The notes: generated by a model not told the origin, from the letters alone. DNA of 64,000 bases from a virus (IMGVR_UViG_3300025519_000044:1-64000); one strand, 5' to 3'. Positions 1 through 50,487 are shown, numbered from the stretch's first letter. Translations and numbers: made by a program.

Positions 1-153
1 CACTTTCAACTCCTCCTCTTTTTCCTCTACATATTTCCTCATCAATTGTCGGATGACTTCACTCTTGTTTTGCATCAGTGCTTCATTTACGCGGTCGAAC
101 CGATCAAGAAGGTCCTGATCAATCCTGTATTGCCTCGTACGTTTCACTTTCAT
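1..153 (-). CDS. 5' part of RHH/CopG-like protein, truncated by window edge (copy of 48695-49087)
   Basis: Matches the 5' end of 48695..49087; ATG at 153 with GGGAGG RBS. Confidence 0.7.
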   Translation of the reverse strand, partial: MKVKRTRQYRIDQDLLDRFDRVNEALMQNKSEVIRQLMRKYVEEKEEELKV

Positions 154-190
154 ACCTCCCATAACCAAAAAGATGGACACAACATGCGCA

Positions 191-219
191 TTGACATGAT
201 AAAAGTTTGTGATTATAAT
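191..219 (+). promoter_or_regulatory. Consensus sigma-A promoter of the mini CRISPR array (copy 1)
   Basis: TTGACA(191-196)-17 bp-TATAAT(214-219); expected start site ~225-226 is the start of repeat 1. Confidence 0.9.
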
Positions 220-224
220 TAGTC

Positions 225-320
225 CATGAACCATAACACAGGGTGTATTTAAATAGTATCTTTTTAATTAATTAACCTGTGCTATTTTTTATTGAACCGT
301 AACATGAGATGTAAGGGAAG
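225..320 (+). CRISPR. Mini CRISPR array, type I-B-like repeats, one 36-nt spacer (copy 1)
   Basis: CATGAACCATAACACAGGGTGTATTTAAAT (225-254), spacer 255-290, ATTGAACCGTAACATGAGATGTAAGGGAAG (291-320); resembles the 30-nt GTTGAACnnTAACATnnGATGTATTTAAAT repeat family. Confidence 0.78.
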
Positions 321-349
321 AGGGAGCGAACATAAATCCGCTCTCTTTT

Positions 350-859
350 CTATTTTTCCGGTTTCCCGAATTTTTCCGTAAGCGCAGTTTCTGATATAAA
401 CGTATAGGCGCCGTTACTTTTAAAATGGCCATCCGGATAATCGGCGCCGTCTATCTCTTCCACCGATATGCCCCAAGTTTTTGCGGCATCCTTTGCTTCC
501 CACACCTTAATGCCAAGTGGTTTAAAAGTTTTTCGCATTTCCCGGTACATTTCGTATGCTTCCGCGCGATTCTTTCGTTTGTTATTACGTTCTGCTATTA
601 TTTCCTTTATTTTATCGGCAGCCGCCAGAAACTCATCTTCATCTACTTCCCACGTTCCAACCGTTTTATAATCTGTTTGTAGTCTAGATTCGCTGTTGTC
701 GAAAGTGGTTGACGGTAAAACCTCCCCAAGGCTGAATATGTAATCTTCCTTAACGGCATGTTCGACAATCGCAAATGCCTCGGCAGCTTTTGGTGTCCCC
801 TTTACAAGCTCCGGGTAAACAGTTTCGGAATAAGACGTTTCTTTATACACAATTTTCAT
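350..859 (-). CDS. Hypothetical protein, possible C-terminal HTH-like domain (identical to 49284-49793)
   Basis: 169 aa ORF with GGAGG RBS; duplicated. Confidence 0.75.
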   Translation of the reverse strand: MKIVYKETSYSETVYPELVKGTPKAAEAFAIVEHAVKEDYIFSLGEVLPSTTFDNSESRLQTDYKTVGTWEVDEDEFLAAADKIKEIIAERNNKRKNRAEAYEMYREMRKTFKPLGIKVWEAKDAAKTWGISVEEIDGADYPDGHFKSNGAYTFISETALTEKFGKPEK

Positions 860-878
860 TTTTGTTTCCTCCTAATTT

Positions 879-1250
879 TTATGCATTAATTTTAGCGCCT
901 TTAAATCTCCAAAACGCTTTTGTTACCGGTGTATATGTGCCACGTTCTTGTGCCACAATAACACCGTTTTGCAATTCAAGAAACCCTTGTTCTTTACGGT
1001 ATCCGGATCCGGTATAGTAATTTACGTATAAGCGTTCCTTCCCATATTTTGCCCAGTAGTTAACGGAATAGGAATCGCTCTTCATTACGGAATTGATGTA
1101 GGTTTCAACATCTTCCACCGTAATTTCTTTTGCTGCTTTTGCCTCCTTCCATGCGAGCCGGAGAGATTCTGCAAAGTATTCCTTTACCTTTCCGCCAAAT
1201 TTACGTTGTCCTGCTTTAGCAATCTCCCAAGCCCGTTTCATTACGTTCAT
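879..1250 (-). CDS. Small hypothetical phage protein (MKRAWEIAK N-terminus)
   Basis: 123 aa ORF, AAGGAG RBS, strong promoter upstream; near-identical to 49813-50184. Confidence 0.8.
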   Translation of the reverse strand: MNVMKRAWEIAKAGQRKFGGKVKEYFAESLRLAWKEAKAAKEITVEDVETYINSVMKSDSYSVNYWAKYGKERLYVNYYTGSGYRKEQGFLELQNGVIVAQERGTYTPVTKAFWRFKGAKINA

Positions 1251-1282
1251 TTCTCTTATCTCCTTTCCTTTATCTTGATTTC

Positions 1283-1311
1283 ATTGTATCATTTTGTATG
1301 TACATTGTCAA
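1283..1311 (-). promoter_or_regulatory. Strong sigma-A promoter for the leftward accessory genes
   Basis: Minus strand TTGACA-17 bp-TACAAT with extended -10 TG. Confidence 0.85.
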
Positions 1312-1489
1312 TACGTTTTTTGAATTTTTTTTTATTGGTTTTTGAAAAAAAGTGATCCAGCCAAAAAATCCCAAAAAATTTTTTCGAGGCATATAGACAA
1401 AATAGTTCAATTTTCCTATAATTTTGTTAGCAGGCGTTCCCAATTGTCCATGTATTTTGCAAAAAATACCCCCCTATATTATGCCTGCA

Positions 1490-16262: not shown

Positions 16263-16445
16263 GTGAAACACGTGAAACCAAAAACACGACAAAAGGGCGA
16301 TAAGTATCGGCCCGTCGTTACGGTGCTTAAAGTAAAGCGAGGTCTGCCCACAAAAATTATGGTAAGCGGACAAGAGTACGCGCTTATCCACAAAAACCAG
16401 TATAGGGGAGTGAGAAAATGCGGGCTGAACGCTGCTACACATTGA
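16263..16445 (+). CDS. Small hypothetical protein shared with phage B (61820-61972)
   Basis: Near-identical peptide KGDKYRPVVTVLKVKRGLPTKIMVSGQEYALIHKNQYRG. Confidence 0.7.
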   Translation: MKHVKPKTRQKGDKYRPVVTVLKVKRGLPTKIMVSGQEYALIHKNQYRGVRKCGLNAATH

Positions 16446-16882
16446 ATGAAGAAACAGAAATCCGGGTAGGGAATTGCTTCTTTACCCGAGATGATTTGAT
16501 TTTGATGTATATCGACAGCGGCATGGATGTTTTAAGTTTAGCAAAATCATTGCGTATCGGGCGGCCGAGGATGGAGCGGATATTGGACAAATTCGACATA
16601 CCAAGAAACTGGCATGCAGAATTGACACCGCGGCATCTGCGAGTGTTGCGCTATATCAAATATTTTCAGACGCGTCACAAGCGCAGCCCAACAAACTTGG
16701 AAATCTCAAAAGCATTGAGGCTATCACCTGGTTGCACGAACTACCATCTCAAAAAATTAAAAGCACACGGGTATGTAAACTGGCCAAGGTACAGCAGTGG
16801 CACATTCAAGTTAACTGAAAAAGGGGAAAGGTGGTGCCGGAATGCCCACACATTTAATCTATTCGGCTTGGAAGAAGACTAG
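16418..16882 (+). CDS. LexA DNA-binding-domain-like regulator heading the type IV operon
   Basis: LTPRHLRVLRYI..SPTNLEIS..HLKKLKAHGYV; no peptidase domain. Confidence 0.75.
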   Translation: MRAERCYTLNEETEIRVGNCFFTRDDLILMYIDSGMDVLSLAKSLRIGRPRMERILDKFDIPRNWHAELTPRHLRVLRYIKYFQTRHKRSPTNLEISKALRLSPGCTNYHLKKLKAHGYVNWPRYSSGTFKLTEKGERWCRNAHTFNLFGLEED

Positions 16883-17765
16883 GGATGAAAATGGGGTGAT
16901 TAAGCAGAACACGAAAGACGGTAAAGGAAATGTAATCATCCGGGACATTAAATTTGTGGATCCGATTAAGGAAAAAGATATGGAAGAACACGCCGGCCAA
17001 CGCTTTCTATGTGGAGAGCCAATGACACAAGGAATGAAACTTAAGAAGGTATTTTCCAACGTGTTCACTGACTGGAACATTGCTAAGAATCCGGCCGGAA
17101 CCCATGTATGTCCGGCATGCTGTTTCTCAATTTTGACCACGAAAGAACGATACGGATTGCGGACATTTTCAAATGTGGCGAATGAAGAAAGGCTTTGGCT
17201 GCCAAACCGGGTAGAGATGCGAGAATTTCTATTGCAGCCGCCTGATCCTCCATTTGTTATAAATTTGGCTGTTTCCCAGAAAAAGCACATCGCTTTTAAG
17301 GGGGAAGTGAATTATTCCCGCGACATATTTACCGTCATGTACGAAGAAATGCCGGTGCTGATCGTTAGAAAAGAGTTTGAAAGTTTACTTGCGTTGGTTG
17401 AACATTTTCTCTATGGATTTACGAAAACGGAGATAACAACCGGAGAATACAGTCAAAAACGGATTTTGGACTTTGGTATTGATGCTTGGGAAGCCTTTGA
17501 GGAACGGGTTAAGACGTACCGGGGCAACCCTATACTTGATGTCGTCATGTTTATTGCACAGAAAATTGAAAATGAGGAGGACTTGAAATGTTTTATGGTT
17601 TCAGAACTAGGGATGAAAGTGCAGGAGCTGCCGCCTTACTTGTCTACGCCGTCTACCGCAGCCGAAACCGAAAAAGAGGGCCAAGTGGCATCGACATGTG
17701 GGGACAAATCGAACGGTTCACGAAAGTCAGCGCAAAGCGAGCAATTAGCGTTGGATCTTTTTTAG
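16842..17765 (+). CDS. csf1: Type IV large subunit Csf1 (Cas8-like)
   Basis: FLCG..FTDW..VCPAC zinc region, LLQPPDPPFVI..SQKKHI; first gene of the csf cluster. Confidence 0.8.
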   Translation: MPTHLIYSAWKKTRDENGVIKQNTKDGKGNVIIRDIKFVDPIKEKDMEEHAGQRFLCGEPMTQGMKLKKVFSNVFTDWNIAKNPAGTHVCPACCFSILTTKERYGLRTFSNVANEERLWLPNRVEMREFLLQPPDPPFVINLAVSQKKHIAFKGEVNYSRDIFTVMYEEMPVLIVRKEFESLLALVEHFLYGFTKTEITTGEYSQKRILDFGIDAWEAFEERVKTYRGNPILDVVMFIAQKIENEEDLKCFMVSELGMKVQELPPYLSTPSTAAETEKEGQVASTCGDKSNGSRKSAQSEQLALDLF

Positions 17766-18061
17766 AAGCCTTTAAACGGAAAATGGCATGCGAAACGATC
17801 AATCCTAAATGGTGTGATAGTGGCAGCAAGGTAATGACGGCCATACAAGATGAATTAGGGAACATTGTCATGACTGGGAATGAGCCTGACGGCGGGAACA
17901 GACAGTTTTTAACCGAGATTATGGAAAGCGGAAAAGACCAGGCCATCCTATATGAACTATACAAAGAAACCGCGCGGGTGATTATGTTAGTCCGGGACCG
18001 TCTAGAGAGAGAAAAACCGATTGAACACAAATTAGAAACCATTATTGAGGAGGAAAATTGA
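17588..18061 (+). CDS. Type IV-B small subunit (Cas11-like)
   Basis: 157 aa helical protein between csf1 and csf2; GAGGAGG RBS. Confidence 0.65.
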   Translation: MFYGFRTRDESAGAAALLVYAVYRSRNRKRGPSGIDMWGQIERFTKVSAKRAISVGSFLEAFKRKMACETINPKWCDSGSKVMTAIQDELGNIVMTGNEPDGGNRQFLTEIMESGKDQAILYELYKETARVIMLVRDRLEREKPIEHKLETIIEEEN

Positions 18062-18062
18062 A

Positions 18063-19019
18063 ATGAACCATTACCGTTTAGAAACCATTTACACACTGCT
18101 GCAACCTTTAAGCCATATCGGGGAAAGCGAATCAACTCAAAGCTTTCTGAATACGACTACAGTCGTCAACGATGGAAAGCCGGAGGAAGTATTTGTTTAT
18201 ACGGGAAATGCTTTGAGAGGCATGCTGCGGGACTGTGGGGCGCGTTACTTACTAAACCGGTTAGATATTCGTGTCCCGTTAAAAGCCTTCCATCTGTTGT
18301 TCAGTGGCGGCTCAATCGGTGGTGCCCAGGCGCTGGATATCGATCAGGCGAAGGTAATTCGTAAAGCCCTGCCATTTGTGTCACTGTTCGGAGGAGGCGT
18401 CGGAAATCAGATTCTGGACGGCAAATTGAAGCAGACCTTTGTTTACCCTGTATGCAAAGAAACGAACAACATTATACCAAGTTATGTTGAAAAGTCCGAC
18501 TATAGTTGGAGACATTTTACAAATGTGATTGAGTTTACCCGGAAAGATGACGAGAAGAATGTGAACCTTGCAGAGCAGTTTTTAATTGGACAAACTGAAC
18601 AGCAGTTACTCGAGGGAGAAACCACCAAAAAGAAAAAAGAAAAAGACGGCCCAGCCACACAAATGCGGTATGCAGTTGAATATTTGGCAGCTGGCACGAA
18701 ACTCTGGCACCGGTGGGATATCATTTGTGATGAGCTGGAACTCGGGGCGTTTGTTTCCTGTCTGCATGAATGGCAAAAGCAGCCTTATCTTGGAGGAAAA
18801 AACGGATCCGGATTTGGACTTGTTCAAGCAGACATGGATGTGATTATTAATGGGGAAAGAAAGAAATTCGCCGATATTAGCCCGGAAACCGTTTTCCTCG
18901 GAGAAATTGCAAAAAAAGCAAAAGAAACATATGACGCTCATCTTAAAGAAATGTACGACAATTATGTCATTGATAACAAAGAGGAGTTTACAAAGCTTTT
19001 GGCAGGCGAGGTGAAATGA
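18063..19019 (+). CDS. csf2: Type IV backbone subunit Csf2 (Cas7)
   Basis: PLSHIGE, GNALRGMLRD, LLFSGG, SLFGG, QMRY..E, G-loop LGGKNGSGFG. Confidence 0.9.
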   Translation: MNHYRLETIYTLLQPLSHIGESESTQSFLNTTTVVNDGKPEEVFVYTGNALRGMLRDCGARYLLNRLDIRVPLKAFHLLFSGGSIGGAQALDIDQAKVIRKALPFVSLFGGGVGNQILDGKLKQTFVYPVCKETNNIIPSYVEKSDYSWRHFTNVIEFTRKDDEKNVNLAEQFLIGQTEQQLLEGETTKKKKEKDGPATQMRYAVEYLAAGTKLWHRWDIICDELELGAFVSCLHEWQKQPYLGGKNGSGFGLVQADMDVIINGERKKFADISPETVFLGEIAKKAKETYDAHLKEMYDNYVIDNKEEFTKLLAGEVK

Positions 19020-19699
19020 AGAATTTGAAGATCACGGCCCGTCTTTTGGACGGGCGCGTGAACTCCAATGATGGCATTTTTAATTTGGATAGTATCTTGG
19101 CTTATGCGTGGATGCTGGAAAATCATCCGGATGACTTGCAGAATAACAATTTACGGCCTGATAACGTAATTGAACCGGATTTGCCACTGGCAAAGGATGA
19201 AGATGGCCGGTGGAAAGCATCCCTCGGATTTTACGAACAACATGCTGAAATCGTTGAGTATTGGCATAAAAAAGTAAACGACTTTGACGCGGCCTATTAT
19301 GTGGACTTCCAGGGCAAACGTGGCAAGATTAACGGTGCATCCGGTGAATATAAAGCTTATCGTATGCCACAAATAATACGGGTTGTGAGTGATATTGAAT
19401 TTTATGCCGTCGGGGATCCTGACGAAATTCGGCGCCTACTTGGATATGTAACCAATATCGGTAAGAAAGCATCACAGGGCTATGGTTATGTACGAGAATG
19501 GGCCATAGAAGAAATTGAAGACGACTATACGGATATCGGGCCATATGGAATTATGCGGACACGTCCATTTACAGGCGAGCTCCCGAACGATGGACAAGCC
19601 TATCAAATTAAGAAAGTGCGTCTAAAACCGCCCTACCATTTACACATAGACCGGGTGCCATGCATTATCCCAAACGTGAGGAGAGATCAGCTTGCTTAA
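19016..19699 (+). CDS. csf3: Type IV subunit Csf3 (Cas5)
   Basis: LDSILAYA, LPL, FYAVGD..IRRLL, G-loop IGKKASQGYG. Confidence 0.87.
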   Translation: MKNLKITARLLDGRVNSNDGIFNLDSILAYAWMLENHPDDLQNNNLRPDNVIEPDLPLAKDEDGRWKASLGFYEQHAEIVEYWHKKVNDFDAAYYVDFQGKRGKINGASGEYKAYRMPQIIRVVSDIEFYAVGDPDEIRRLLGYVTNIGKKASQGYGYVREWAIEEIEDDYTDIGPYGIMRTRPFTGELPNDGQAYQIKKVRLKPPYHLHIDRVPCIIPNVRRDQLA

Positions 19700-20408
19700 A
19701 ATAAAACTTCCTGTCCAATTTGACGACGGAAAGGCTATGTATGATGCGGTATTGGCGATCATTCATAAGCAGTCTCCTGTGCTGTCTAAAATGATTCATG
19801 ATAACTACGATTACAACCCATTTAGTGTTGAGTTACCTAATATTGTAAATGTTATAGGCTTAGAGATTGAACCATTTTTTAAAAACCTGAATGGTATCGA
19901 AATATTAAGAGAAGTGTCGTATAAGGATTTAATGAACAGAAAATATGATAATCTGACAATTATGGTACAGTTTCACAATACGACGTTTTCCCGAAAAGGT
20001 TATGACACGCCTATTCCGGATCCAAACCATATTCTTTTAAGCCTTAAAGAGCGTTGGAATCAGCTTTTTCCGGATAAAATCGATATCAAAATTCCATTTC
20101 ATGGAGAAAATACAAGGGAATATACGGTAATTAAATTCTTGAATATCCATTCGGCAGCACACAAAATAGCTGACTATCGGCCATACACCGTTTTTTATGG
20201 CAAAGTGGGATTTAAATTTTACGGAGACGAGGCATACGTTCAAAAAGCAAATATTCTTTTTCGGTTTGCTGAATTTGCGGGTGTTGGACTTAAGCGGCAA
20301 ATGGGAATGGGGGTTACAAAAATATTGGCAAAAGGGGACGTGAAAACAAATGATGACAGAAGCAGAGAAAGAAACGTACATGCTGCGTGCGACGCTGCCG
20401 GGATTTAA
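19692..20408 (+). CDS. cas6: Cas6-family crRNA endoribonuclease
   Basis: YNPFSV, FHNTTF, PIPDP..SLKERWN, C-terminal FAEFAGVGLKRQMGMG G-loop. Confidence 0.82.
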   Translation: MLKIKLPVQFDDGKAMYDAVLAIIHKQSPVLSKMIHDNYDYNPFSVELPNIVNVIGLEIEPFFKNLNGIEILREVSYKDLMNRKYDNLTIMVQFHNTTFSRKGYDTPIPDPNHILLSLKERWNQLFPDKIDIKIPFHGENTREYTVIKFLNIHSAAHKIADYRPYTVFYGKVGFKFYGDEAYVQKANILFRFAEFAGVGLKRQMGMGVTKILAKGDVKTNDDRSRERNVHAACDAAGI

Positions 20409-21126
20409 AAGAAAAGTATCAAGAAGTTTAGAAATTATTCGCGAAGCACTGGCAATAGAAGGCATTAAGTGGTCTGCATCCGTTAGTTTTGGTAAAGATA
20501 GCCTTGTAATGCTCGATTTGCTAAGTCAAGTGATGGACGAAATACCCGTTTATTTTATGGACAGTGATTATAAACTCCCAGAAATATATGAAACTATTGA
20601 AAAAGCACAAGAAAGATATAAAATAAATATTAGTAAGGCCTATTTCGCAGACAGGCGCCCGATGAAAGAAGTATGGGATCAATTCGGGATCCCGGGCATT
20701 AACCGAACTACATCCATGCAAAATAAGGCACTAAAAGTATTAAAGAAAGACGTTTCCGACAGATGGGCAAAAGAAAATGGATACAACGGTATCTTTTGGG
20801 GTATCCGCAAACAGGAGTCCAGTCAACGGAAATGGATGGTCACATCATTTGGCGTGACATTTGAGAATAAGCAAGGATTTTACCGGTGCGCCCCCCTAGC
20901 CTATTGGGATGCCAGTGACATCTGGGCGTACATCGTATCGAGAAACTTGGATTATCCAAAGCTGTATGATTACCAAAAGTATCAAACCCGTGATTGGATC
21001 AGGAATACCGGTTGGGCAACGACAGACGGGGCAGAACGCGGCCGAATCGTTTGGCTTCGTGAATTTTACCCAAACTACTACGACGAATTACGGTGGATGC
21101 TGCCGAAAATAGATGAATACATTTAA
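20350..21126 (+). CDS. cysH: CysH/PAPS-reductase-family protein (type IV-B accessory)
   Basis: SVSFGKDS PP-loop, GIRKQES..R, PLAYW..DIWAYI..YPKLYD. Confidence 0.88.
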   Translation: MMTEAEKETYMLRATLPGFKRKVSRSLEIIREALAIEGIKWSASVSFGKDSLVMLDLLSQVMDEIPVYFMDSDYKLPEIYETIEKAQERYKINISKAYFADRRPMKEVWDQFGIPGINRTTSMQNKALKVLKKDVSDRWAKENGYNGIFWGIRKQESSQRKWMVTSFGVTFENKQGFYRCAPLAYWDASDIWAYIVSRNLDYPKLYDYQKYQTRDWIRNTGWATTDGAERGRIVWLREFYPNYYDELRWMLPKIDEYI

Positions 21127-21143: not shown

Positions 21144-21190
21144 AGGACGCTGAATTTGCACGCTTTGTGCTGATTTAGCGTCCTTTTTTA
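21144..21190 (+). terminator. Terminator after cysH with a competing upstream hairpin
   Basis: AGGACGCTGAAT..ATTTAGCGTCCT followed by a T run. Confidence 0.75.
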
Positions 21191-21210
21191 TTTTTTTAGG
21201 AGGAAACCAA

Positions 21211-21399
21211 ATGGGCACATTACAAGACGAATTGAAAAAATGGGAAAAGCAGAATCCAAACAAAGGGAAAAAGCCACGAGGAAAGCCAAGAAAGTCGAAA
21301 TCAGAGCATTTAAGCGAACGTGAGATAAAAGATCTTATGGGATATTATGATCCCGTATATAAGCGAGGGAGAGGCGGAGCATGGAGAAATGGAAGATGA
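21211..21399 (+). CDS. Small basic hypothetical protein
   Basis: AGGAGG RBS; DLMG..YKRGRGGAWR motif, also seen at 63793. Confidence 0.7.
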   Translation: MGTLQDELKKWEKQNPNKGKKPRGKPRKSKSEHLSEREIKDLMGYYDPVYKRGRGGAWRNGR

Positions 21400-21857
21400 A
21401 CAAGCAAGAAATCTCACAGGCATTAAAGGATTATCATTGGATGATCAACGAAATCAAGAGACAGCGCAAAATGCTGGAGAATGAAGTGAGAAGCAACATC
21501 ACATCCCAATATGGGGAAGAATCCGCCTTACCGAATCCAAAAGGAACAAATAGTGATCCGGTTTACCGTGAAATTTTACGTCGGGAGAAGACACATCAAT
21601 GGATTAATCGGTTGCAGAAGAAAGTGCTGTTTATTCAGGAACATGTTGATTGCGTGCAAGGAGAACGCGAACGTGCCGTGCTGGAGTGCCTGCTGGACGG
21701 AATGAGCGTCATTGCCATTAGCCGACATATGGGGCTATCAGAACGGAATATTCGGGCCATCCGTGCCAATATTGTGGACACGATGTATGAAAATGCCGGA
21801 AATGCCGGAAATGCCGGAAATGCCGGTTTTGCCGGAAATGCCGAGATTGCCGGATAG
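21381..21857 (+). CDS. Late transcriptional activator (sigma70 region 4/LuxR-like HTH)
   Basis: ERAVLECLLDGMSVIAISRHMGLSER; lies before the packaging genes; start may be 21396. Confidence 0.75.
   Translation: MEKWKMNKQEISQALKDYHWMINEIKRQRKMLENEVRSNITSQYGEESALPNPKGTNSDPVYREILRREKTHQWINRLQKKVLFIQEHVDCVQGERERAVLECLLDGMSVIAISRHMGLSERNIRAIRANIVDTMYENAGNAGNAGNAGFAGNAEIAG
21791..21853 (+). repeat. 7 x 9-bp tandem repeat (AAATGCCGG consensus)
   Basis: Read directly; encodes the NAG-repeat tail. Confidence 0.9.
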
Positions 21858-32444: not shown

Positions 32445-32859
32445 CGCAAACGAACTCGATTTTCAGGACTGTATGATTGACGCAATTGAAGCAAATTGCA
32501 ATCTGTTTGCACCTATCGATGTTCCAATCATCAGGATCAACGAGGACGGCACAGGCAGTGGTATCGCCTTCATGTTAACACCGATTGGCGAGGAAACAAG
32601 ATACATGGATGGTGGCCGTGACAGGATGTACGCTTTTCAAATTAGTGCTCGCAGCCCTGACCAGCTACAAGTTTTAAACACATTATTCAGTATCAATAGG
32701 TTCATAGATGGGCTAAAAAGCGGAGATATCCAAAGCAAAAATGGAACATTTGAGTTTATTAATGCCGTGGTGCGAAGCGTGCCGAATTTGGTGCAGGCCG
32801 ACACTCACGGTTTTTTATATGTCTCAAATTTCGAAGCTGAACTTTTATTGAAGGAGTGA
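32431..32859 (+). CDS. Tail terminator-like protein
   Basis: Synteny before the tail tube gene. Confidence 0.7.
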   Translation: MTENNANELDFQDCMIDAIEANCNLFAPIDVPIIRINEDGTGSGIAFMLTPIGEETRYMDGGRDRMYAFQISARSPDQLQVLNTLFSINRFIDGLKSGDIQSKNGTFEFINAVVRSVPNLVQADTHGFLYVSNFEAELLLKE

Positions 32860-32864
32860 TCTAA

Positions 32865-33344
32865 ATGGCTTTTAATCTGAACTATAAGAACAAGTTCGAG
32901 ATTGATACCAAAGGCAACCTGGATCCGAACCAAATCGACGGCGCAACTTTTGAACCATTGGCCGCCGGAATTTCAAGTGTAACACCATCACCGGGTGACA
33001 CTACGGACAATACGGCCTATTACGATGGCGATGGCTTTGCCAACACAGATGTCACCGGGAAAAACTTTTCAATCGCATTCAGCGGCAACCGCGTAGAAGG
33101 GGATGCAGCCCAGGATTACGTTGCAAGCAAAGAATTCGCAATCGGCGACGACGTAAAAACATTACTTCGCTGGACCAAATCAGACGGCACAGTTTTAGTG
33201 GCGCAAATTACGATGAGCGCAATCACCACATCAGGTGGTAATGCAAACGCAAAACAAACATTTTCGTTCACGGCAAACATTAATGGCCTGCCAATAGTAA
33301 CCGCGCCAACAGGCAGCGGAACAACAGAAACGACAGGGGCTTAA
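32865..33344 (+). CDS. Major tail tube protein
   Basis: LAAGIS, YYDGDG, FSGNR..GDAAQDY; followed by a terminator. Confidence 0.85.
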   Translation: MAFNLNYKNKFEIDTKGNLDPNQIDGATFEPLAAGISSVTPSPGDTTDNTAYYDGDGFANTDVTGKNFSIAFSGNRVEGDAAQDYVASKEFAIGDDVKTLLRWTKSDGTVLVAQITMSAITTSGGNANAKQTFSFTANINGLPIVTAPTGSGTTETTGA

Positions 33345-33419
33345 TGAATAACACCATGGATGGCGATATTTCGCCATCCTATTTTTTAGCATAAAGGAGC
33401 ATAAAGGGGAGAAATAATC

Positions 33420-33848
33420 ATGATTAAAATTGACCTAAACGAAACAAAAAAAGATTTCAGAATAAAAGATAAAACATTCACCGCCAACTTTTCGGATGAC
33501 ACGTTGCGCCATTATTTCGAGATTGGCAAGGAAATAGACAAATTGGATAAGGATTTTGAAGAAAAATTTCCAGACATTGAGAATGAACGAGATTTTGGAA
33601 AAGTAGCACAGGCCGTTATTGAAGCATTGCCAGTCCGGGCGGAATCCTACCAAGAATTTTTTGATGAAACCTTTGGCGAAGGATCCGGGGCCGAAATTTA
33701 CGAGATTTGTGGAGAAAGTACGCCAAACATGAAAAAAGTATTTGATGCAGTATGGAACGAGATTTTAAAACACATGGCGGGAATTGAAACGAAAGAAGAG
33801 ACCACGGCCAAGAAATACATCAAGAATAAAAACATTCAAAGGCGATAG
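33420..33848 (+). CDS. Tail assembly chaperone
   Basis: Synteny; FGEGS..IY. Confidence 0.7.
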   Translation: MIKIDLNETKKDFRIKDKTFTANFSDDTLRHYFEIGKEIDKLDKDFEEKFPDIENERDFGKVAQAVIEALPVRAESYQEFFDETFGEGSGAEIYEICGESTPNMKKVFDAVWNEILKHMAGIETKEETTAKKYIKNKNIQRR

Positions 33849-33854
33849 ATAACC

Positions 33855-34472
33855 ATGTTGAGCCTAAAACAGCCGTTAGAAAGCGAAATAGAAATAAACG
33901 GAAAAAGATATCAACTAGATTTATCTTTTGACAATGTTTTGCGGTGGTACGATTTGATGAATGACGACGAAGTAAACGAAATTGGAAAAATAAATTTTGC
34001 ATACATGATGTTTGTCATTGATTGTCCAGACGTAGACATAGACACAAAAATTGCAACCGTAAAGGCCATTTCAGAATATATCCAAGGTGATGAAGAAACC
34101 GGAGAAAACGACGATTCAAACAATACAAAAGAGTATTTGAGCTTTGAAAAAGATGCAGATTATATCTTTGCATCATTCATGCAAGAATATGGGATTGACC
34201 TAATAGAGCAGCAGGGAAAGCTACGGTGGGAAAAATTTATTGCACTTTTTAACGGTATGAGATCCGAAACGAAAATTAATCAAATAATCGGGATCCGGGC
34301 CGCAGATTTGCCAACCGGTAACAGCCCGGCAGAAATTGCCGAGCGCAACCGACTAATTGAATTAAAAGACCTTTATGCACTAGATAAAGAAGCATCTGTA
34401 TCATTGCAGGAAAAAGCAATGGACGATATGTTTGAACGACTAGTAAAAAGCGCACAGCAAAACAAGAAATGA
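33855..34472 (+). CDS. Gp15-family tail chaperone
   Basis: LSFDNVLR, DADYIFASF.QEYGIDL, LRWEKF. Confidence 0.85.
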   Translation: MLSLKQPLESEIEINGKRYQLDLSFDNVLRWYDLMNDDEVNEIGKINFAYMMFVIDCPDVDIDTKIATVKAISEYIQGDEETGENDDSNNTKEYLSFEKDADYIFASFMQEYGIDLIEQQGKLRWEKFIALFNGMRSETKINQIIGIRAADLPTGNSPAEIAERNRLIELKDLYALDKEASVSLQEKAMDDMFERLVKSAQQNKK

Positions 34473-34490
34473 AGGGGGTGAAATAGAAAA

Positions 34491-37400
34491 ATGAGCGATG
34501 GGAAAGTTGTAATAGACGTAGTGCTAGACGATACAAAAGTAAAATCCGACGTCGACATTATAGAACGGCTGCTGCAGCATTTAGGCGAAAAGGCCGGCAA
34601 TAACATGGACAAAAATTTTGCCAGCAATGCCAAAAAAATGGTGCAAGAAGCGGAAAAGGCCAGAAGTAATCTTGAAAAAGCATTCAACGAAAAAATAGAA
34701 CAAAAAGTCGAAGTACGAGACAATGCCACCACAAAGGCAAAAAAAGTAGAAAACGACATAAAAGACGAATTCGATAAAAAAATCGAGCAAAAAATTGATG
34801 TAAAAGACGATGCCACCAAAAAAGCGGCGCAGGTGGAGCGGAACATAAAAAATAAAGCCGACAATCCATTTAATTTTAAATTGGAAATTGATAAAGACAC
34901 CATCAGTAGCATAAAAAAAGCGTTTGATACCGTGGACAAAGAAGCCGACGAAGCCGCGCAGCATGTTTCTGTTTTCAAAGGAGCATTTGCCGGTACGTTT
35001 GCTGCGAACATTGTAACCGGGGCTCTTGAACATGCAAAAGAAGGATTTAAAAGCATGATAGAAGCCGGGATTGAATACAACGCAACGCAAGATAAAATGT
35101 TGGCAACCTGGAAAACACTGACAGGAAGCGCGACGCTTGGGAAACAAATGGTAGACATGGTAAACAAATTTCAAAGACAGACCGGCTATGCAACGGAAAC
35201 ACTGGACGAAATGGAACAAAAAATTTACCACATAAAATCAAGCGCATCCGAAACAGAAACCATGACAAAGGCATTTACAACATTAGGTGATGCCATGGGC
35301 CTTTCAAACGAACGACTGCTCGGCGTAACAGAGCAATTTTCGCAAATGATGGCAACCGGAAAAGCCTACACCGGAGATTTAAACATAATGACCAACGCAT
35401 TCCCGGCATTTGGCGAAGCCCTGCAGGAAACGACTGGGAAGAGCATGGGCGAGTTGCGGAAATTGGCAAGTGAGGGCAAACTTTCGGCAAAAACAGTAGA
35501 GGATACATTAATTGAAATGTCGCACAAGTATTCAGATGCAACAGAAAATGCAAACAGTACAATCCAAGGATTGTGGAGGTCCATAGAATCAAATTGGAGC
35601 CGATTGGCCGGGAAATTTGTACAGCCAATTTTTAATCTAAAAAAGAGCGGATTCAAGGATTTAGAAGATTGGTTGGCAAGTAGCAAAGCCGATGAATTTT
35701 TCACCAATATGGGTGAAAAAGTTGCAGCAGTCGTAAGCAAATTAACAGATATGATTGAGTTTGTGAAAGATAACAAAGACATGGTACTGGGATTTGCGAA
35801 GGCATTTGGAATTTTGACGGCGGAAATTTGGACCATCAAAAAGGTGGCCAGCGTAGTCGAAGTGATAAACACATTAAGGGGCGGCCTGGGTAATTTACGC
35901 CGGGATTATGCGCTGACGGCATCAGCAGCAACGGCAATGGGCGACGCGGAAGTGGCGGCATCCGAAAAAGCAGCAGCAGCAGGGTCCGCAACAAGTAGAG
36001 CCGGAACTTCGCTGAATAAATTCCGAGGCGTTTTGAACATTGCAGGCGCAGGATTAATCGCATTCGGCGGCAAATGGGGCATGATTGCTGGCATAGCAGC
36101 CAACTTTATCCCGGAAATTTTAAAAGCAGGAAGCGGCATTCTAAAATTTGGCGGACAAGCGCTCGGGGCCGTAAAAAATATGCGCTTTTTAGCCGGGGCT
36201 TTTGGCGATACCGGCGCTGCGATATTTGGATTAAGCAACCCAATTGGATGGATCATAACGGCGATTGCAGCCGTAGGAACCGGCTTTTATTATGCCTATA
36301 AATATATAAAACCATTCCGTGAAAGCATGAATGACCTGGGCGACGATTTAAAGGGCAATTTTACCCACGCCATGAACAAGGTAAAAGAATTTTTTGCAAA
36401 CCCATTGGATTTGAAAATCAAATGGGATTCGAGCGTCAGCAAATCGGATCAGAAAGCAATCGACAGTTATACAAAGCTAGTCGATAAAGCACAAAACAAG
36501 CTAGAGGAACTGGTTATAACAGGTAAAAAGATCGGAAAGCAAGACGTTTCCGACCTGGTAAAGCCTTATGAACAAATGGCGAAGCAGATCACAAAGCATT
36601 TCGACGACGCAACAAAGAGCGCAAAGAAGAACCTTAAATATTTAGATGGTCTAAACAAAGATGAATATAACGACATTCTGAAAAAGACCACAAAAGCCAA
36701 CAATCAAAACAAAAAACAGGTTCAAAAGATCACAAACGAAATAAAAGACATATACGAAAATGCAGCCAAACACCACCGAAGCCTGACGGAAGAAGAGCAG
36801 GAAAAGGTGAACAAACTGCAAAACAAAATGAACACATATGCCGCAAAAAGCGTTTCAAAATCTGCGAAAGAGCAAACAGAAATTCTGGGCAAATTGAGAG
36901 ATCATGCCGGGAAACTTAGCGCACAACAAGCCGCAAAAATCGTCGCAAATGCCAAAAAGCAAGAAGAGCAAACAATCAAACACGCAAAAAATGAGTATAA
37001 AGAAGCAGTTGACCAGGCAGAAAAGAAATACAAAGGAACAAAAAATTGGGCTGACGAGCAGTATTATGTGAATGGATCGATTTCTAAAAAGGAATACGAA
37101 GACATAGTGAAAAACGCAAAGCGGCAAAAGGACCAAAGCATTCAGCACGCAAAAGACCAGCGTGACGCCGTAATCGCACACGCCAAAACACAGCAAAGAG
37201 AAACCGTCGACGCAGCCAAGAAACAAGCGGAAGGACACAGGGACGCAGTCGATTGGGAAACTGGAAAAGTATTAAGTAAGTATGATAAATTCCGGGCCAG
37301 CTTTGCACATGTAATAAACAGCATTACCGGCTTTTTTAATAAAATTTTCGATAAAATCGGTCTTGGAAAAATCAATATTCCACAATGGAAACCGGCCGGA

Positions 37401-48459: not shown

Positions 48460-48487
48460 AAAAAGCCCTCGCAAATGCGGGGGCTTG
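48460..48487. terminator. Hairpin terminator after the lysis genes
   Basis: AAAAAGCCCTCGC-AAAT-GCGGGGGCTT. Confidence 0.7.
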
Positions 48488-48513
48488 AAATTTAAAAAAT
48501 AACGTGATAATAT
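48485..48513 (+). promoter_or_regulatory. Sigma-A promoter of the solitary repeat unit
   Basis: TTGAAA-17 bp-TAATAT with extended -10 TG. Confidence 0.65.
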
Positions 48514-48525
48514 CTTTTTAAAGGT

Positions 48526-48624
48526 ATCGCGTCCTTTTAAAAAAAATGCGTGGATTGAAACTGTGAATTGGATATTTGAGCTAAGCCGAAACTGCCGGGG
48601 CTTATTCCTCGGCAGTTTTGCTTT
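48526..48624 (+). CRISPR. Solitary type I-C-like repeat, short unique segment and terminator hairpin
   Basis: ATCGCGTCCTTTTAAAAAAAATGCGTGGATTGAAAC (48526-48561) versus I-C GTCGC..GCGTGGATTGAAA(T/C); followed by AAACTGCCGGGG..CCTCGGCAGTTT. Confidence 0.65.
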
Positions 48625-48694: not shown

Positions 48695-49087
48695 CTAAAT
48701 ATTTGTTTCCCAGGCATCCACAGTTGCTTTCATAGCTTCCATGGCATGTTTTTTTGTGGGAAAATGTTCTATGCCGGATTCCCCGTCATCGACATTGTAA
48801 GACGGAACTTCATCCGCATACGGATATTCCGGTCCCCAAGCGAAGAAGTAATTTCCATTTTCGGCCTTCCCGACGGCGTAGGCCTCGCCGTTATTTGGGA
48901 AGTTGTCACGCAATTCAACGATTTCTAATACCTCCACTTTCAACTCCTCCTCTTTTTCCTCTACATATTTCCTCATCAATTGTCGGATGACTTCACTCTT
49001 GTTTTGCATCAGTGCTTCATTTACGCGGTCGAACCGATCAAGAAGGTCCTGATCAATCCTGTATTGCCTCGTACGTTTCACTTTCAT
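48695..49087 (-). CDS. RHH/CopG-like N-terminus fused to an acidic domain
   Basis: RQYRIDQDLLDRF..NKSEVIRQLMRKYV; GGGAGG RBS. Confidence 0.7.
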   Translation of the reverse strand: MKVKRTRQYRIDQDLLDRFDRVNEALMQNKSEVIRQLMRKYVEEKEEELKVEVLEIVELRDNFPNNGEAYAVGKAENGNYFFAWGPEYPYADEVPSYNVDDGESGIEHFPTKKHAMEAMKATVDAWETNI

Positions 49088-49124
49088 ACCTCCCATAACC
49101 AAAAAGATGGACACAACATGCGCA

Positions 49125-49153
49125 TTGACATGATAAAAGTTTGTGATTATAAT
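49125..49153 (+). promoter_or_regulatory. Consensus sigma-A promoter of the mini-array (copy 2)
   Basis: TTGACA-17-TATAAT. Confidence 0.9.
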
Positions 49154-49158
49154 TAGTC

Positions 49159-49254
49159 CATGAACCATAACACAGGGTGTATTTAAATAGTATCTTTTTA
49201 ATTAATTAACCTGTGCTATTTTTTATTGAACCGTAACATGAGATGTAAGGGAAG
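49159..49254 (+). CRISPR. Mini CRISPR array, type I-B-like repeats, one 36-nt spacer (copy 2)
   Basis: Repeat 49159-49188, spacer 49189-49224, 3'-degenerate repeat 49225-49254, then terminator GAGGGAGCG..CGCTCTCTTTT. Confidence 0.78.
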
Positions 49255-49283
49255 AGGGAGCGAACATAAATCCGCTCTCTTTT

Positions 49284-49793
49284 CTATTTTTCCGGTTTCC
49301 CGAATTTTTCCGTAAGCGCAGTTTCTGATATAAACGTATAGGCGCCGTTACTTTTAAAATGGCCATCCGGATAATCGGCGCCGTCTATCTCTTCCACCGA
49401 TATGCCCCAAGTTTTTGCGGCATCCTTTGCTTCCCACACCTTAATGCCAAGTGGTTTAAAAGTTTTTCGCATTTCCCGGTACATTTCGTATGCTTCCGCG
49501 CGATTCTTTCGTTTGTTATTACGTTCTGCTATTATTTCCTTTATTTTATCGGCAGCCGCCAGAAACTCATCTTCATCTACTTCCCACGTTCCAACCGTTT
49601 TATAATCTGTTTGTAGTCTAGATTCGCTGTTGTCGAAAGTGGTTGACGGTAAAACCTCCCCAAGGCTGAATATGTAATCTTCCTTAACGGCATGTTCGAC
49701 AATCGCAAATGCCTCGGCAGCTTTTGGTGTCCCCTTTACAAGCTCCGGGTAAACAGTTTCGGAATAAGACGTTTCTTTATACACAATTTTCAT
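49284..49793 (-). CDS. Hypothetical protein, possible C-terminal HTH-like domain
   Basis: 169 aa; identical to 350-859. Confidence 0.75.
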   Translation of the reverse strand: MKIVYKETSYSETVYPELVKGTPKAAEAFAIVEHAVKEDYIFSLGEVLPSTTFDNSESRLQTDYKTVGTWEVDEDEFLAAADKIKEIIAERNNKRKNRAEAYEMYREMRKTFKPLGIKVWEAKDAAKTWGISVEEIDGADYPDGHFKSNGAYTFISETALTEKFGKPEK

Positions 49794-49812
49794 TTTTGTT
49801 TCCTCCTAATTT

Positions 49813-50184
49813 TTATGCGTTTATTTTAGCGCCTTTAAATCTCCAAAACGCTTTTGTTACCGGTGTATATGCGCCACGTTCTTGTGCCACAATAACACCG
49901 TTTTGCAATTCAAGAAACCCTTGTTCTTTACGGTATCCGGATCCTGTATAGTAATTTACGTATAAGCGTTCCTTCCCGTATTTTGCCCAGTAGTTAACGG
50001 AATAGGAATCGCTCTTCATTACGGAATTGATGTAGGTTTCAACATCTTCCACCGTAATTTCTTTTGCTTCTTTTGCCTCCTTCCATGCGAGCCGGAGAGA
50101 TTCTGCAAAGTATTCCTTTACCTTTCCGCCAAATTTACGTTGCCCTGCTTTAGCAATCTCCCAAGCCCGTTTCATAACGTTCAT
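49813..50184 (-). CDS. Small hypothetical phage protein
   Basis: 123 aa; minus-strand promoter at 50216-50244 (TTGACA-17-TACAAT). Confidence 0.8.
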   Translation of the reverse strand: MNVMKRAWEIAKAGQRKFGGKVKEYFAESLRLAWKEAKEAKEITVEDVETYINSVMKSDSYSVNYWAKYGKERLYVNYYTGSGYRKEQGFLELQNGVIVAQERGAYTPVTKAFWRFKGAKINA

Positions 50185-50487
50185 TTCTCTTATCTCCTTT
50201 CCTTATCTTGATTTCATTGTATCATTTTGTATGTACATTGTCAATACGTTTTTTGAATTTTTTTATTGGTTTTTGAAAAAAGTGATCCCGCCAAAAAATC
50301 CCAAAAAATTTTTTCGAGGCCTATAGACAAAATAAGCCAATTTTCTTATAATTTTGTTAGCAGGCGTTCCAATTGTCCATGTATTTGTAAAAAATACCCC
50401 CCTATGCCTGCACAAAAATAGAGCAGGTGGTTAGCCTGCTCCTTTTTTATTCATGAAAATCCTCCCCATAATCGAGGAGGAAAATGC

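Follow-up and report, generated by a model that had tools for sequence, protein, structure and literature searches.

Positions 16418 to 21126 of the 64,000-nucleotide stretch analysed here (the window, which is the first 64 kb of the 91,358-bp IMG/VR virus record IMGVR_UViG_3300025519_000044) carry a CRISPR effector operon of subtype IV-B that contains its own cas6 gene. The operon is placed between the replication/recombination genes and the late genes of an integrase-bearing temperate phage of the Heyndrickxia (Bacillus) coagulans group. It is an intact IV-B effector module with a Cas6 of the PF10040 class. We propose, with a probability of about 35%, that it would use repeat RNA supplied by the cell, mainly the type I-C precursor CRISPR RNA (pre-crRNA) of the host, for counter-defence or in conflicts between genetic elements. 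The host pre-crRNA is favoured as the main substrate because these phages have no array, while large I-C arrays are present in their hosts, most of which encode no Cas6 themselves.

The interval contains seven open reading frames (ORFs) on the plus strand, with overlapping or abutting ends, which encode in this order a winged helix-turn-helix (wHTH) protein, Csf1, Cas11, Csf2, Csf3, Cas6 and a CysH-like enzyme. Decisive for identifying the csf genes were PADLOC models that derive from CRISPRCasTyper. The large subunit of type IV, Csf1 (16842-17765, 307 amino acids), matched Csf1_0_IV over residues 44-243 with an E value of 5.3e-36 and TIGR03114 with 2e-17. It has a Cys-rich zinc-ribbon region, no HD domain and, beyond the profile match, a low-complexity tail of about 60 amino acids with the C-terminal sequence QLALDLF; its match to Cas10IVc was only marginal (E 0.67, zinc-finger region). 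The small subunit Cas11 (17588-18061, 157 amino acids) matched positions 1-160 of the 161 in the Cas11_2_IV profile with 1.1e-37. The Cas7 backbone subunit Csf2 (18063-19019, 318 amino acids) matched Csf2_0_IV with 8.3e-67 and phrog_22746 with 1e-53; among solved structures, the IV-B Csf2 chain in 7JHY is closest to it (3e-13), and a IV-C Cas7 comes next. The csf2 start is most likely ATG 18063 rather than TTG 18045, from which the frame is open, as judged from relatives that begin with MNHYR or MKHYR. The Cas5 subunit Csf3 (19016-19699, 227 amino acids) matched Csf3_0_IV with 8.6e-42 and TIGR03116 with 1.5e-20. The TIGR models for Csf1, Csf2 and Csf3 gave values of 1e-17 to 1e-21, below their equivalog cut-offs. 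Finally, the last gene (20350-21126, 258 amino acids) encodes a PP-loop enzyme of the CasCysH type (PAPS_reduct, 1.5e-28) with an SFGKDS motif and without the C-terminal catalytic cysteine; in an alignment of 12 csf-linked homologues, S-x-G-K-D-S was invariant and this cysteine was absent.

All seven coupled genes described in an initial annotation of the sequence were recovered as ORFs, and none of the csf ORFs failed the type IV profiles, the E values for these genes and cas11 ranging from 1e-36 to 1e-67. Together with the PAPS_reduct match, these results agree with the subtype IV-B that had been assigned. The locus contains Csf2, a Csf1 without HD domain, Csf3, Cas11 and an adjacent cysH-like gene, and has no DinG or RecD helicase, no adaptation genes and no array. 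Neither cas1 nor a repeat-spacer array was found anywhere in the 91-kb record, where the sole CRISPR-like element seen in the repeat scans was a degenerate two-repeat unit 28 kb away, and no helicase or HD-nuclease ORF was found in the operon by ORF mapping and profile scans; the reported absence of cas1, nuclease, DinG and adjacent array was thus borne out. The locus departs from the subtype, which is defined without Cas6, by the cas6 gene at 19692-20408. It is a Cas6-bearing IV-B variant, a documented rare exception.

The cas6 product (238 amino acids, plus strand) matched PF10040 with 6e-13, above the Pfam cut-off. An AlphaFold2 (AF2) model built on an alignment of 15 family sequences had a predicted local distance difference test (pLDDT) score of 82. 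Foldseek matched this model to Thermus Cas6B and Cas6A, to Streptococcus thermophilus Cas6 and to the type IV-A Cas6 6NJY, with E values of 5e-11 to 6e-9 and template modelling (TM) scores of 0.59-0.67 (4C98, 5.3e-11; 6FJW, TM 0.67; 6NJY, 5.6e-9; S. thermophilus Cas6, TM 0.67). The profile and structure matches confirm the Cas6 fold that had been proposed for this ORF, and the model predicts a double ferredoxin/RNA recognition motif (RRM) fold with a C-terminal glycine-rich loop. Residues K14 and H36 and the loop GxGxKxxMGxG (GVGLKRQMGMG in the phage) are invariant in the 15 family members and are the same in distant phage loci; Y41 is nearly invariant and varies in more distant members. H36 is the putative catalytic histidine of the phage enzyme; T. 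thermophilus Cas6A employs H37 (title of entry 4C97). The ratio of nonsynonymous to synonymous substitutions (dN/dS) of cas6 was 0.04-0.12 in unsaturated comparisons, in the same range as that of csf2, and the gene is under purifying selection.

The nearest Cas6, with 92% identity, comes from H. coagulans. Prophage copies of the operon were found in H. coagulans DSM 1, Weizmannia acidilactici PP-18 and Pullulanibacillus camelliae, and eight further viral contigs carry related copies. Within this clade, cas6 is present at 9 of the 11 loci. In a tree of Csf2, with three canonical cas6-less IV-B loci from other Bacillota genomes as outgroup, the clade was monophyletic (100/100) and a cas6-less member was sister to a cas6-containing one, also with 100/100, which indicates that cas6 was lost at least once. 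Where cas6 is missing, at two loci, csf3 directly adjoins a CysH-like gene that is divergent (28-33% identity). At least three types of this terminal CysH-like gene exist, which are only 26-35% identical and share the same invariant residues (12303-13073 in L006/L003, G002; 11604-12392 in L012; 1936-2724 in L010); these types are swapped among close relatives, which makes the end of the operon a recombination hotspot. In two relatives, csf3 and cas6 are separated by an additional gene (L009, 11745-12458; L011, 11615-12172), which encodes 237 and 185 amino acids, respectively, and belongs to no Pfam family.

A wider survey of the kind suggested by the initial annotation was performed with a profile of diverse Csf2 proteins against IMG/VR, and 53 viral loci were retrieved. 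Most of them have the order csf1-cas11-csf2-csf3-cysH. The order csf3-cas6-cysH was found in 9 of the approximately 42 phage IV-B loci that have at least 2 kb of sequence past csf3, including two distant lineages with 46-48% Csf2 identity, the Cas6 of which also matches PF10040. Furthermore, in L151, a high-GC viral locus of the same Csf2 profile family, cas6 adjoins an array of four repeats. These counts show that the Cas6-bearing form is no one-off and that it is a recurrent minority variant among phage IV-B loci. The general description of IV-B as lacking both cas6 and arrays, on which the initial annotation relied, has published exceptions as regards cas6: Pinilla-Redondo et al. 2020 (NAR 48:2000, PMC7038947) count 12 IV-B loci with Cas6 and also note IV-B on Firmicutes prophages. 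Cas6-bearing IV-B is therefore a rare but recorded variant, occurring in several phage lineages, and its novelty had been overstated. New in the present analysis are the selection on cas6 and its loss, the targeting of these phages by I-C systems, the self-targeting lysogen, the conserved clamp-type end of Csf1 and the csf1/cas11 overlap. In Skermania phage SPI1 (KR011061; L001), an isolated actinophage with only hypothetical annotations, csf1, cas11, csf2 and csf3 lie at about 32609-36242 (PADLOC, 1e-15 to 1e-36) and are followed by an unassigned gene for 239 amino acids.

The missing array, adaptation genes and nuclease could be taken as signs of a decaying CRISPR remnant that has no present function. 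However, all six genes are intact in at least nine diverged relatives, both cas6 and csf2 evolve at the low dN/dS given above, and the architecture recurs in distant phage lineages, which makes decay a highly improbable explanation.

It had been argued that a Cas6 in this position implies the processing of real repeat-containing RNA, taken either from the host or from distant CRISPR-like RNAs of the phage itself. As to the existence of such RNA, the argument is reasonable in view of the purifying selection, the invariant histidine, the array beside cas6 in L151 and the host I-C arrays that target these phages, whereas the part concerning the phage's own RNAs fared poorly. Two elements of the window could serve as such RNAs. 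A degenerate I-B-like mini-array of two repeats, driven by a promoter, lies at 49125-49283 (plus strand; identical copy at 191-349) and is a candidate Cas6 substrate only. A solitary type I-C-like repeat unit, also promoter-driven, lies at 48485-48624 (plus strand); its 3′ end (GCGTGGATTGAAAC) matches the host I-C repeat, and it is a candidate substrate or decoy.

If Cas6 processed the mini-array, the solitary repeat or both, the Csf complex would obtain a dedicated guide, or two, with which to compete with other phages or to silence genes. Both elements have promoters and terminators, and the repeat family of the mini-array is genuine, with 94 copies in an I-B array of a Bacillaceae genome beside cas6b-cas8b-cas7-cas5-cas3-cas4-cas1. 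Moreover, repeat R1 of the mini-array (a 4-bp hairpin, then the 8-nt handle AUUUAAAU) has the architecture of the repeats beside the distant cellular relatives of the phage Cas6; these relatives, from Bacilli, adjoin arrays whose repeats, where the end could be read, consist of a short hairpin followed directly by ATTGAAAC. Several observations nevertheless speak against such guides. Both elements were found only in this record and in G002 and are absent from the complete cas6-containing proviruses G001 and G004, and no similarity could be detected between the phage Cas6 and the Cas6b that natively adjoins the I-B array. The spacer of the mini-array gave only chance-level matches in the phage database and in related phages. 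In addition, the solitary repeat is also held by the second of the two phages that seem to be joined in this record, where no second Csf2 match was found, the whole record giving a single one. We consider it unlikely that these elements are what Cas6 is kept for; the mini-array in particular is probably not the main substrate, since it is missing from most cas6-containing relatives. The solitary repeat occurs in both phages of the record (G000, about 86950-86982) and in G002 (about 6282), independently of the csf operon, and it more likely acts via the host Cascade than via Csf.

Relaxed scans of 10 related phage records and of the 53 viral loci revealed no array or mini-array near cas6-containing IV-B loci other than that of L151. 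Likewise, no conserved non-coding segment or k-mer was found across seven cas6-containing lineages by intergenic BLAST and k-mer enrichment, both of which are crude searches. The lack of arrays in these phages, the constant embedding of cas6 in the operon and the non-CRISPR RNA partners allowed for in the IV-B literature would all suit a Cas6 that cuts a single-copy hairpin of a phage transcript, for instance in or near its own operon, and thus supplies one non-CRISPR RNA for assembly. That the crude searches gave no segment common to the divergent loci argues against this, and we regard a single hairpin as an improbable substrate.

The substrate that we favour, the host I-C pre-crRNA, would be available in the cells in which these prophages reside. 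The three lysogen genomes all encode Cas8c above the cut-off and possess large I-C arrays. In type I-C systems, processing is normally carried out by Cas5, and no Cas6 is involved. The host repeat folds into a hairpin of 7 bp (-13 kcal/mol), after which come 11 nt that end in ATTGAAAT, and in two of the three lysogen hosts the prophage Cas6 is the sole Cas6. A comparison of host Cas6 content with the presence of cas6 in the operon (two of three hosts of cas6-less IV-B loci have a Cas6 of their own, and two of three hosts of cas6-containing loci have none) involves too few genomes to count as evidence and was set aside.

The spacers of these hosts show that the phages are targets of I-C immunity. 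Among 181 spacers extracted from the arrays of two lysogen hosts, we found 39 strong matches to these phages, 34 of which are flanked by the I-C protospacer adjacent motif (PAM) TTC. Two protospacers with a TTC PAM lie within the operon itself, on the minus strand: 18563-18596, inside csf2, matches spacer 27 of a W. acidilactici I-C array at 34 of 34 positions, and 16952-16985, inside csf1, matches an I-C spacer of H. coagulans DSM 1 at 32 of 34. Furthermore, the array of W. acidilactici PP-18 (L096) contains three perfect spacers and one single-mismatch spacer against the csf-cas6 prophage of the same strain (L039; 13865-13898, 15526-15560, 15770-15803 and 17820-17855), and all four sites are TTC-flanked. 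As judged by ORF length, the cas3-cas5-cas8c-cas7-cas4-cas1-cas2 operon of this strain is seemingly intact. As the I-C operon seems intact, this perfect self-targeting implies a block of I-C interference by the prophage, among whose products an inhibitor would thus be expected.

The tail of Csf1 offers a further indication of where the complex may act. The codons 17742-17762 (plus strand) specify the conserved C-terminal end QLALDLF, a motif of the sliding-clamp-binding type. All clade Csf1 proteins shown end in Q[LI]xL[DE]LF, those of independent lineages end in QLSLF, QLGLF or QLVLF, and the motif is absent from Csf1 proteins without the long tail. Complex formation between the last 50 residues of Csf1 and the clamp DnaN of W. 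acidilactici was predicted in parallel with three controls; the model scored 0.72, compared to 0.00 for the best control, with a contact agreement of at least 46% and a partner pLDDT of at least 43 in the docking runs. The docking mark is reached by 51 of 78 solved complexes and by 2 of 108 mismatched pairs. The modelled contacts join Csf1 297-307 to DnaN 159-184, 250-255 and 332-381. This prediction supports binding of the Csf1 tail to DnaN, although clamp-peptide complexes have already been solved and the docking pass may reflect likeness only. No paper linking Csf1 to the sliding clamp was found among the open-access papers searched.

The same tail is encoded in a region shared with cas11. 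The cas11 start codon (ATG 17588, preceded at 7 nt by GAGGAGG) lies inside csf1, and the two genes have 178 nt in common (17588-17765), read in different frames that are both open in every relative examined. In this stretch the N-terminal third of the Cas11 profile is matched by the cas11 frame, and the csf1 frame ends in the clamp-binding-type motif. The location of the motif within the overlapping csf1 tail argues that the overlap is truly dual-coding, as 17588-17765 indeed looks to be. Relative to csf1, cas11 is read in the -1 frame, and a Csf1-Cas11 frameshift fusion is conceivable. An ORF of 92 amino acids starting at 17783, after the csf1 stop, had also been considered as cas11; a profile search of the Protein Data Bank, hhalign against the small subunit of the Skermania phage, Atlas, an AF2 model (pLDDT 61) and VIA-align were uninformative for this ORF, and it was dropped once the full ORF of 157 amino acids matched the Cas11 profile end to end.

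In the mechanism that we favour, Cas6 would cut the hairpin-bearing repeat RNA present in the infected cell, mainly the host I-C pre-crRNA, with the solitary repeats of the phages as an occasional extra. The cleaved RNA would then serve for the assembly of Csf3, Csf2, Cas11 and Csf1, the complex may be tethered to DNA by the clamp-binding Csf1 tail, and CasCysH may modify the nucleic acid held there through ATP-dependent adenylation chemistry. Overall, the module would serve as counter-defence against the host I-C system, by capture of crRNA or masking of targets, or in conflict with rival elements. One detailed version, in which Cas6 cuts the I-C pre-crRNA, the clamp-held Csf complex withholds guides from Cascade or occupies phage protospacers, and CasCysH marks the bound nucleic acid, is rather doubtful as a whole. 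Delivery of the CysH-like enzyme to targets, as suggested in the initial annotation, is purely conjectural. A precedent for the use of host RNA is provided by array-less IV-C complexes, which recruit crRNAs from host arrays (PMC13676074).

Several points weigh against this use of host pre-crRNA. Array scans of the record and of related records gave no cognate repeat RNA for Cas6 in the phage or its relatives, and the candidates are the host I-C repeats, the solitary repeat and R1. The I-C repeat has 11 unpaired nt after the hairpin, compared to 8 in the repeats beside the cellular relatives of Cas6. One of the lysogen hosts has a Cas6 of its own, and two clade loci, L010 and L012, do without cas6. 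The host crRNAs include guides against the phage itself, and the chemistry of CysH has no tie to RNA capture. The self-targeting lysogen could be protected by an ordinary anti-CRISPR protein encoded elsewhere in the prophage. Finally, according to the account of Zhou et al. 2021 given in PMC8175902, the RNA bound by the sole solved IV-B complex was heterogeneous, and crRNAs expressed alongside that complex were ignored.

This complex, from Mycobacterium JS623, suggests that the phage proteins might need no guide. A Csf filament would form on heterogeneous RNA, Cas6 would merely bind or cap RNA ends, and a clamp-tethered platform would carry CasCysH to DNA that is being replicated, where it would modify DNA or nucleotides, counteract restriction or control replication. 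The clamp-binding-type tail of Csf1 would fit such a platform, as would the location of the operon, which has replication/recombination genes on one side and a ParB-methyltransferase gene on the other; in addition, the PAPS-reductase fold of the CysH-like protein is common to DndC and BrxP, the cas6-less relatives retain the rest of the operon, and the searches near cas6-containing loci gave neither an array nor a conserved non-coding element. However, known Cas6 enzymes are sequence- and structure-specific, an invariant putative catalytic histidine and glycine-rich loop under strong purifying selection are hard to square with a mere cap, and the related locus L151 pairs cas6 with a real array. 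We consider non-guided action doubtful, although it is the main rival of the favoured mechanism.

Comparison with known systems places the phage operon closest to the IV-B complex of Mycobacterium sp. JS623 (7JHY). The five gene families and their order are shared, and the 7JHY chain is the closest solved Csf2. Both have a CysH-like protein with a PP-loop and without the C-terminal catalytic cysteine, and no array, adaptation module, helicase or nuclease, and both reside on a mobile element. The phage operon differs in having cas6 between csf3 and cysH, a phage rather than a plasmid as carrier, a long Csf1 tail with a clamp-binding-type end, and a cas11 that overlaps csf1 out of frame. The 12 loci of PMC7038947 represent the same rare exception and were counted there without further analysis. 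The IV-C1 system of Thermococcus onnurineus (PMC13676074) likewise has Cas11 and a cas6 in the locus, the product of which is no stable subunit there, and its complex loads crRNAs from host arrays located elsewhere; in contrast to the phage operon, it has a Cas10-like HD nuclease instead of Csf1, lacks CysH, and is a chromosomal system of host defence. The IV-B locus of Fuxivirus (PMC10848311) is also virus-borne and contains CysH, its cas7 is targeted by a host spacer, and counter-defence has been proposed for it; it belongs, however, to an archaeal virus, has a mini-array directly beside it, and is reported without a Cas6. In type IV-A (Csf5/Cas6, DinG, array), Csf1, Csf2 and Csf3 are homologous, the guide is made by a Cas6-family nuclease, and 6NJY is among the closest folds of the phage Cas6, whereas the phage operon has no DinG and no array and contains Cas11 and CysH.

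If the detailed version of the mechanism given above is true, the operon would be an RNA-level counter-CRISPR machine, and a function and a guide source would for the first time be defined for type IV-B; a 2026 paper calls the function and full architecture of IV-B complexes unclear (PMC13676074). Being both tractable and non-pathogenic, this phage group offers handles on the subtype, as Cas6 should mark the true RNA partner and natural sister phages with and without cas6 are available. The I-C arrays that target these phages, the self-target-tolerant lysogen and the Csf1 tail, which points to the replication clamp, are further handles.

The first gene of the operon (16418-16882, plus strand) encodes a wHTH protein that is probably a local regulator; it matched LexA_DNA_bind with 1.4e-7, resembles the wHTH of Csa3/CARF regulators (PADLOC, 2.9e-7), and overlaps the start of csf1 by 41 nt. 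The gene is found in most close relatives, and other genes take its place in L009, L011 and L039. PHROG matches identified an integrase, RecE, RecT, a DnaC-like loader, a Holliday-junction resolvase and an HNH protein upstream of the operon, and terminase, portal and endolysin downstream, in agreement with the phage setting first described. A search of the operon DNA against a phage collection gave no match, and a promoter scan detected sites no more commonly than expected by chance. A hairpin with 8-bp arms and a long loop, followed by a T run, was read from the sequence at 21144-21198 (plus strand) and is likely the end of the transcription unit; a simple terminator scan omitted it, its loop being longer than 8 nt. 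In three studies, contigs from RNA libraries match relatives of the operon with 85-99% identity, and one contig of 3.1 kb spans csf2 to cysH; such contigs cannot reveal transcription, strand or ends, DNA carry-over is possible, and they constitute weak evidence of expression.

Beyond the operon, a direct repeat of about 1-1.4 kb (window 1-1400 and 48935-50330; 99.7% identical across the first 1 kb) flanks the first phage; it contains two small leftward genes as well as the mini-array. From about 51.5 kb follows a second phage, which has an integrase-like gene of its own. In view of the flanking repeat and of this second phage, two phage genomes seem to be joined in the record. Inside an ORF of the second phage (window 56746-56828) lies a perfect direct repeat of 38 nt in two copies, separated by 45 nt and each with a 7-bp palindrome, which look iteron-like rather than CRISPR-like. 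Finally, about seven tandem copies of the 9-nt unit AAATGCCGG were observed at window 21791-21854, at the 3′ end of a GerE/sigma-like late-regulator gene (21381-21857).

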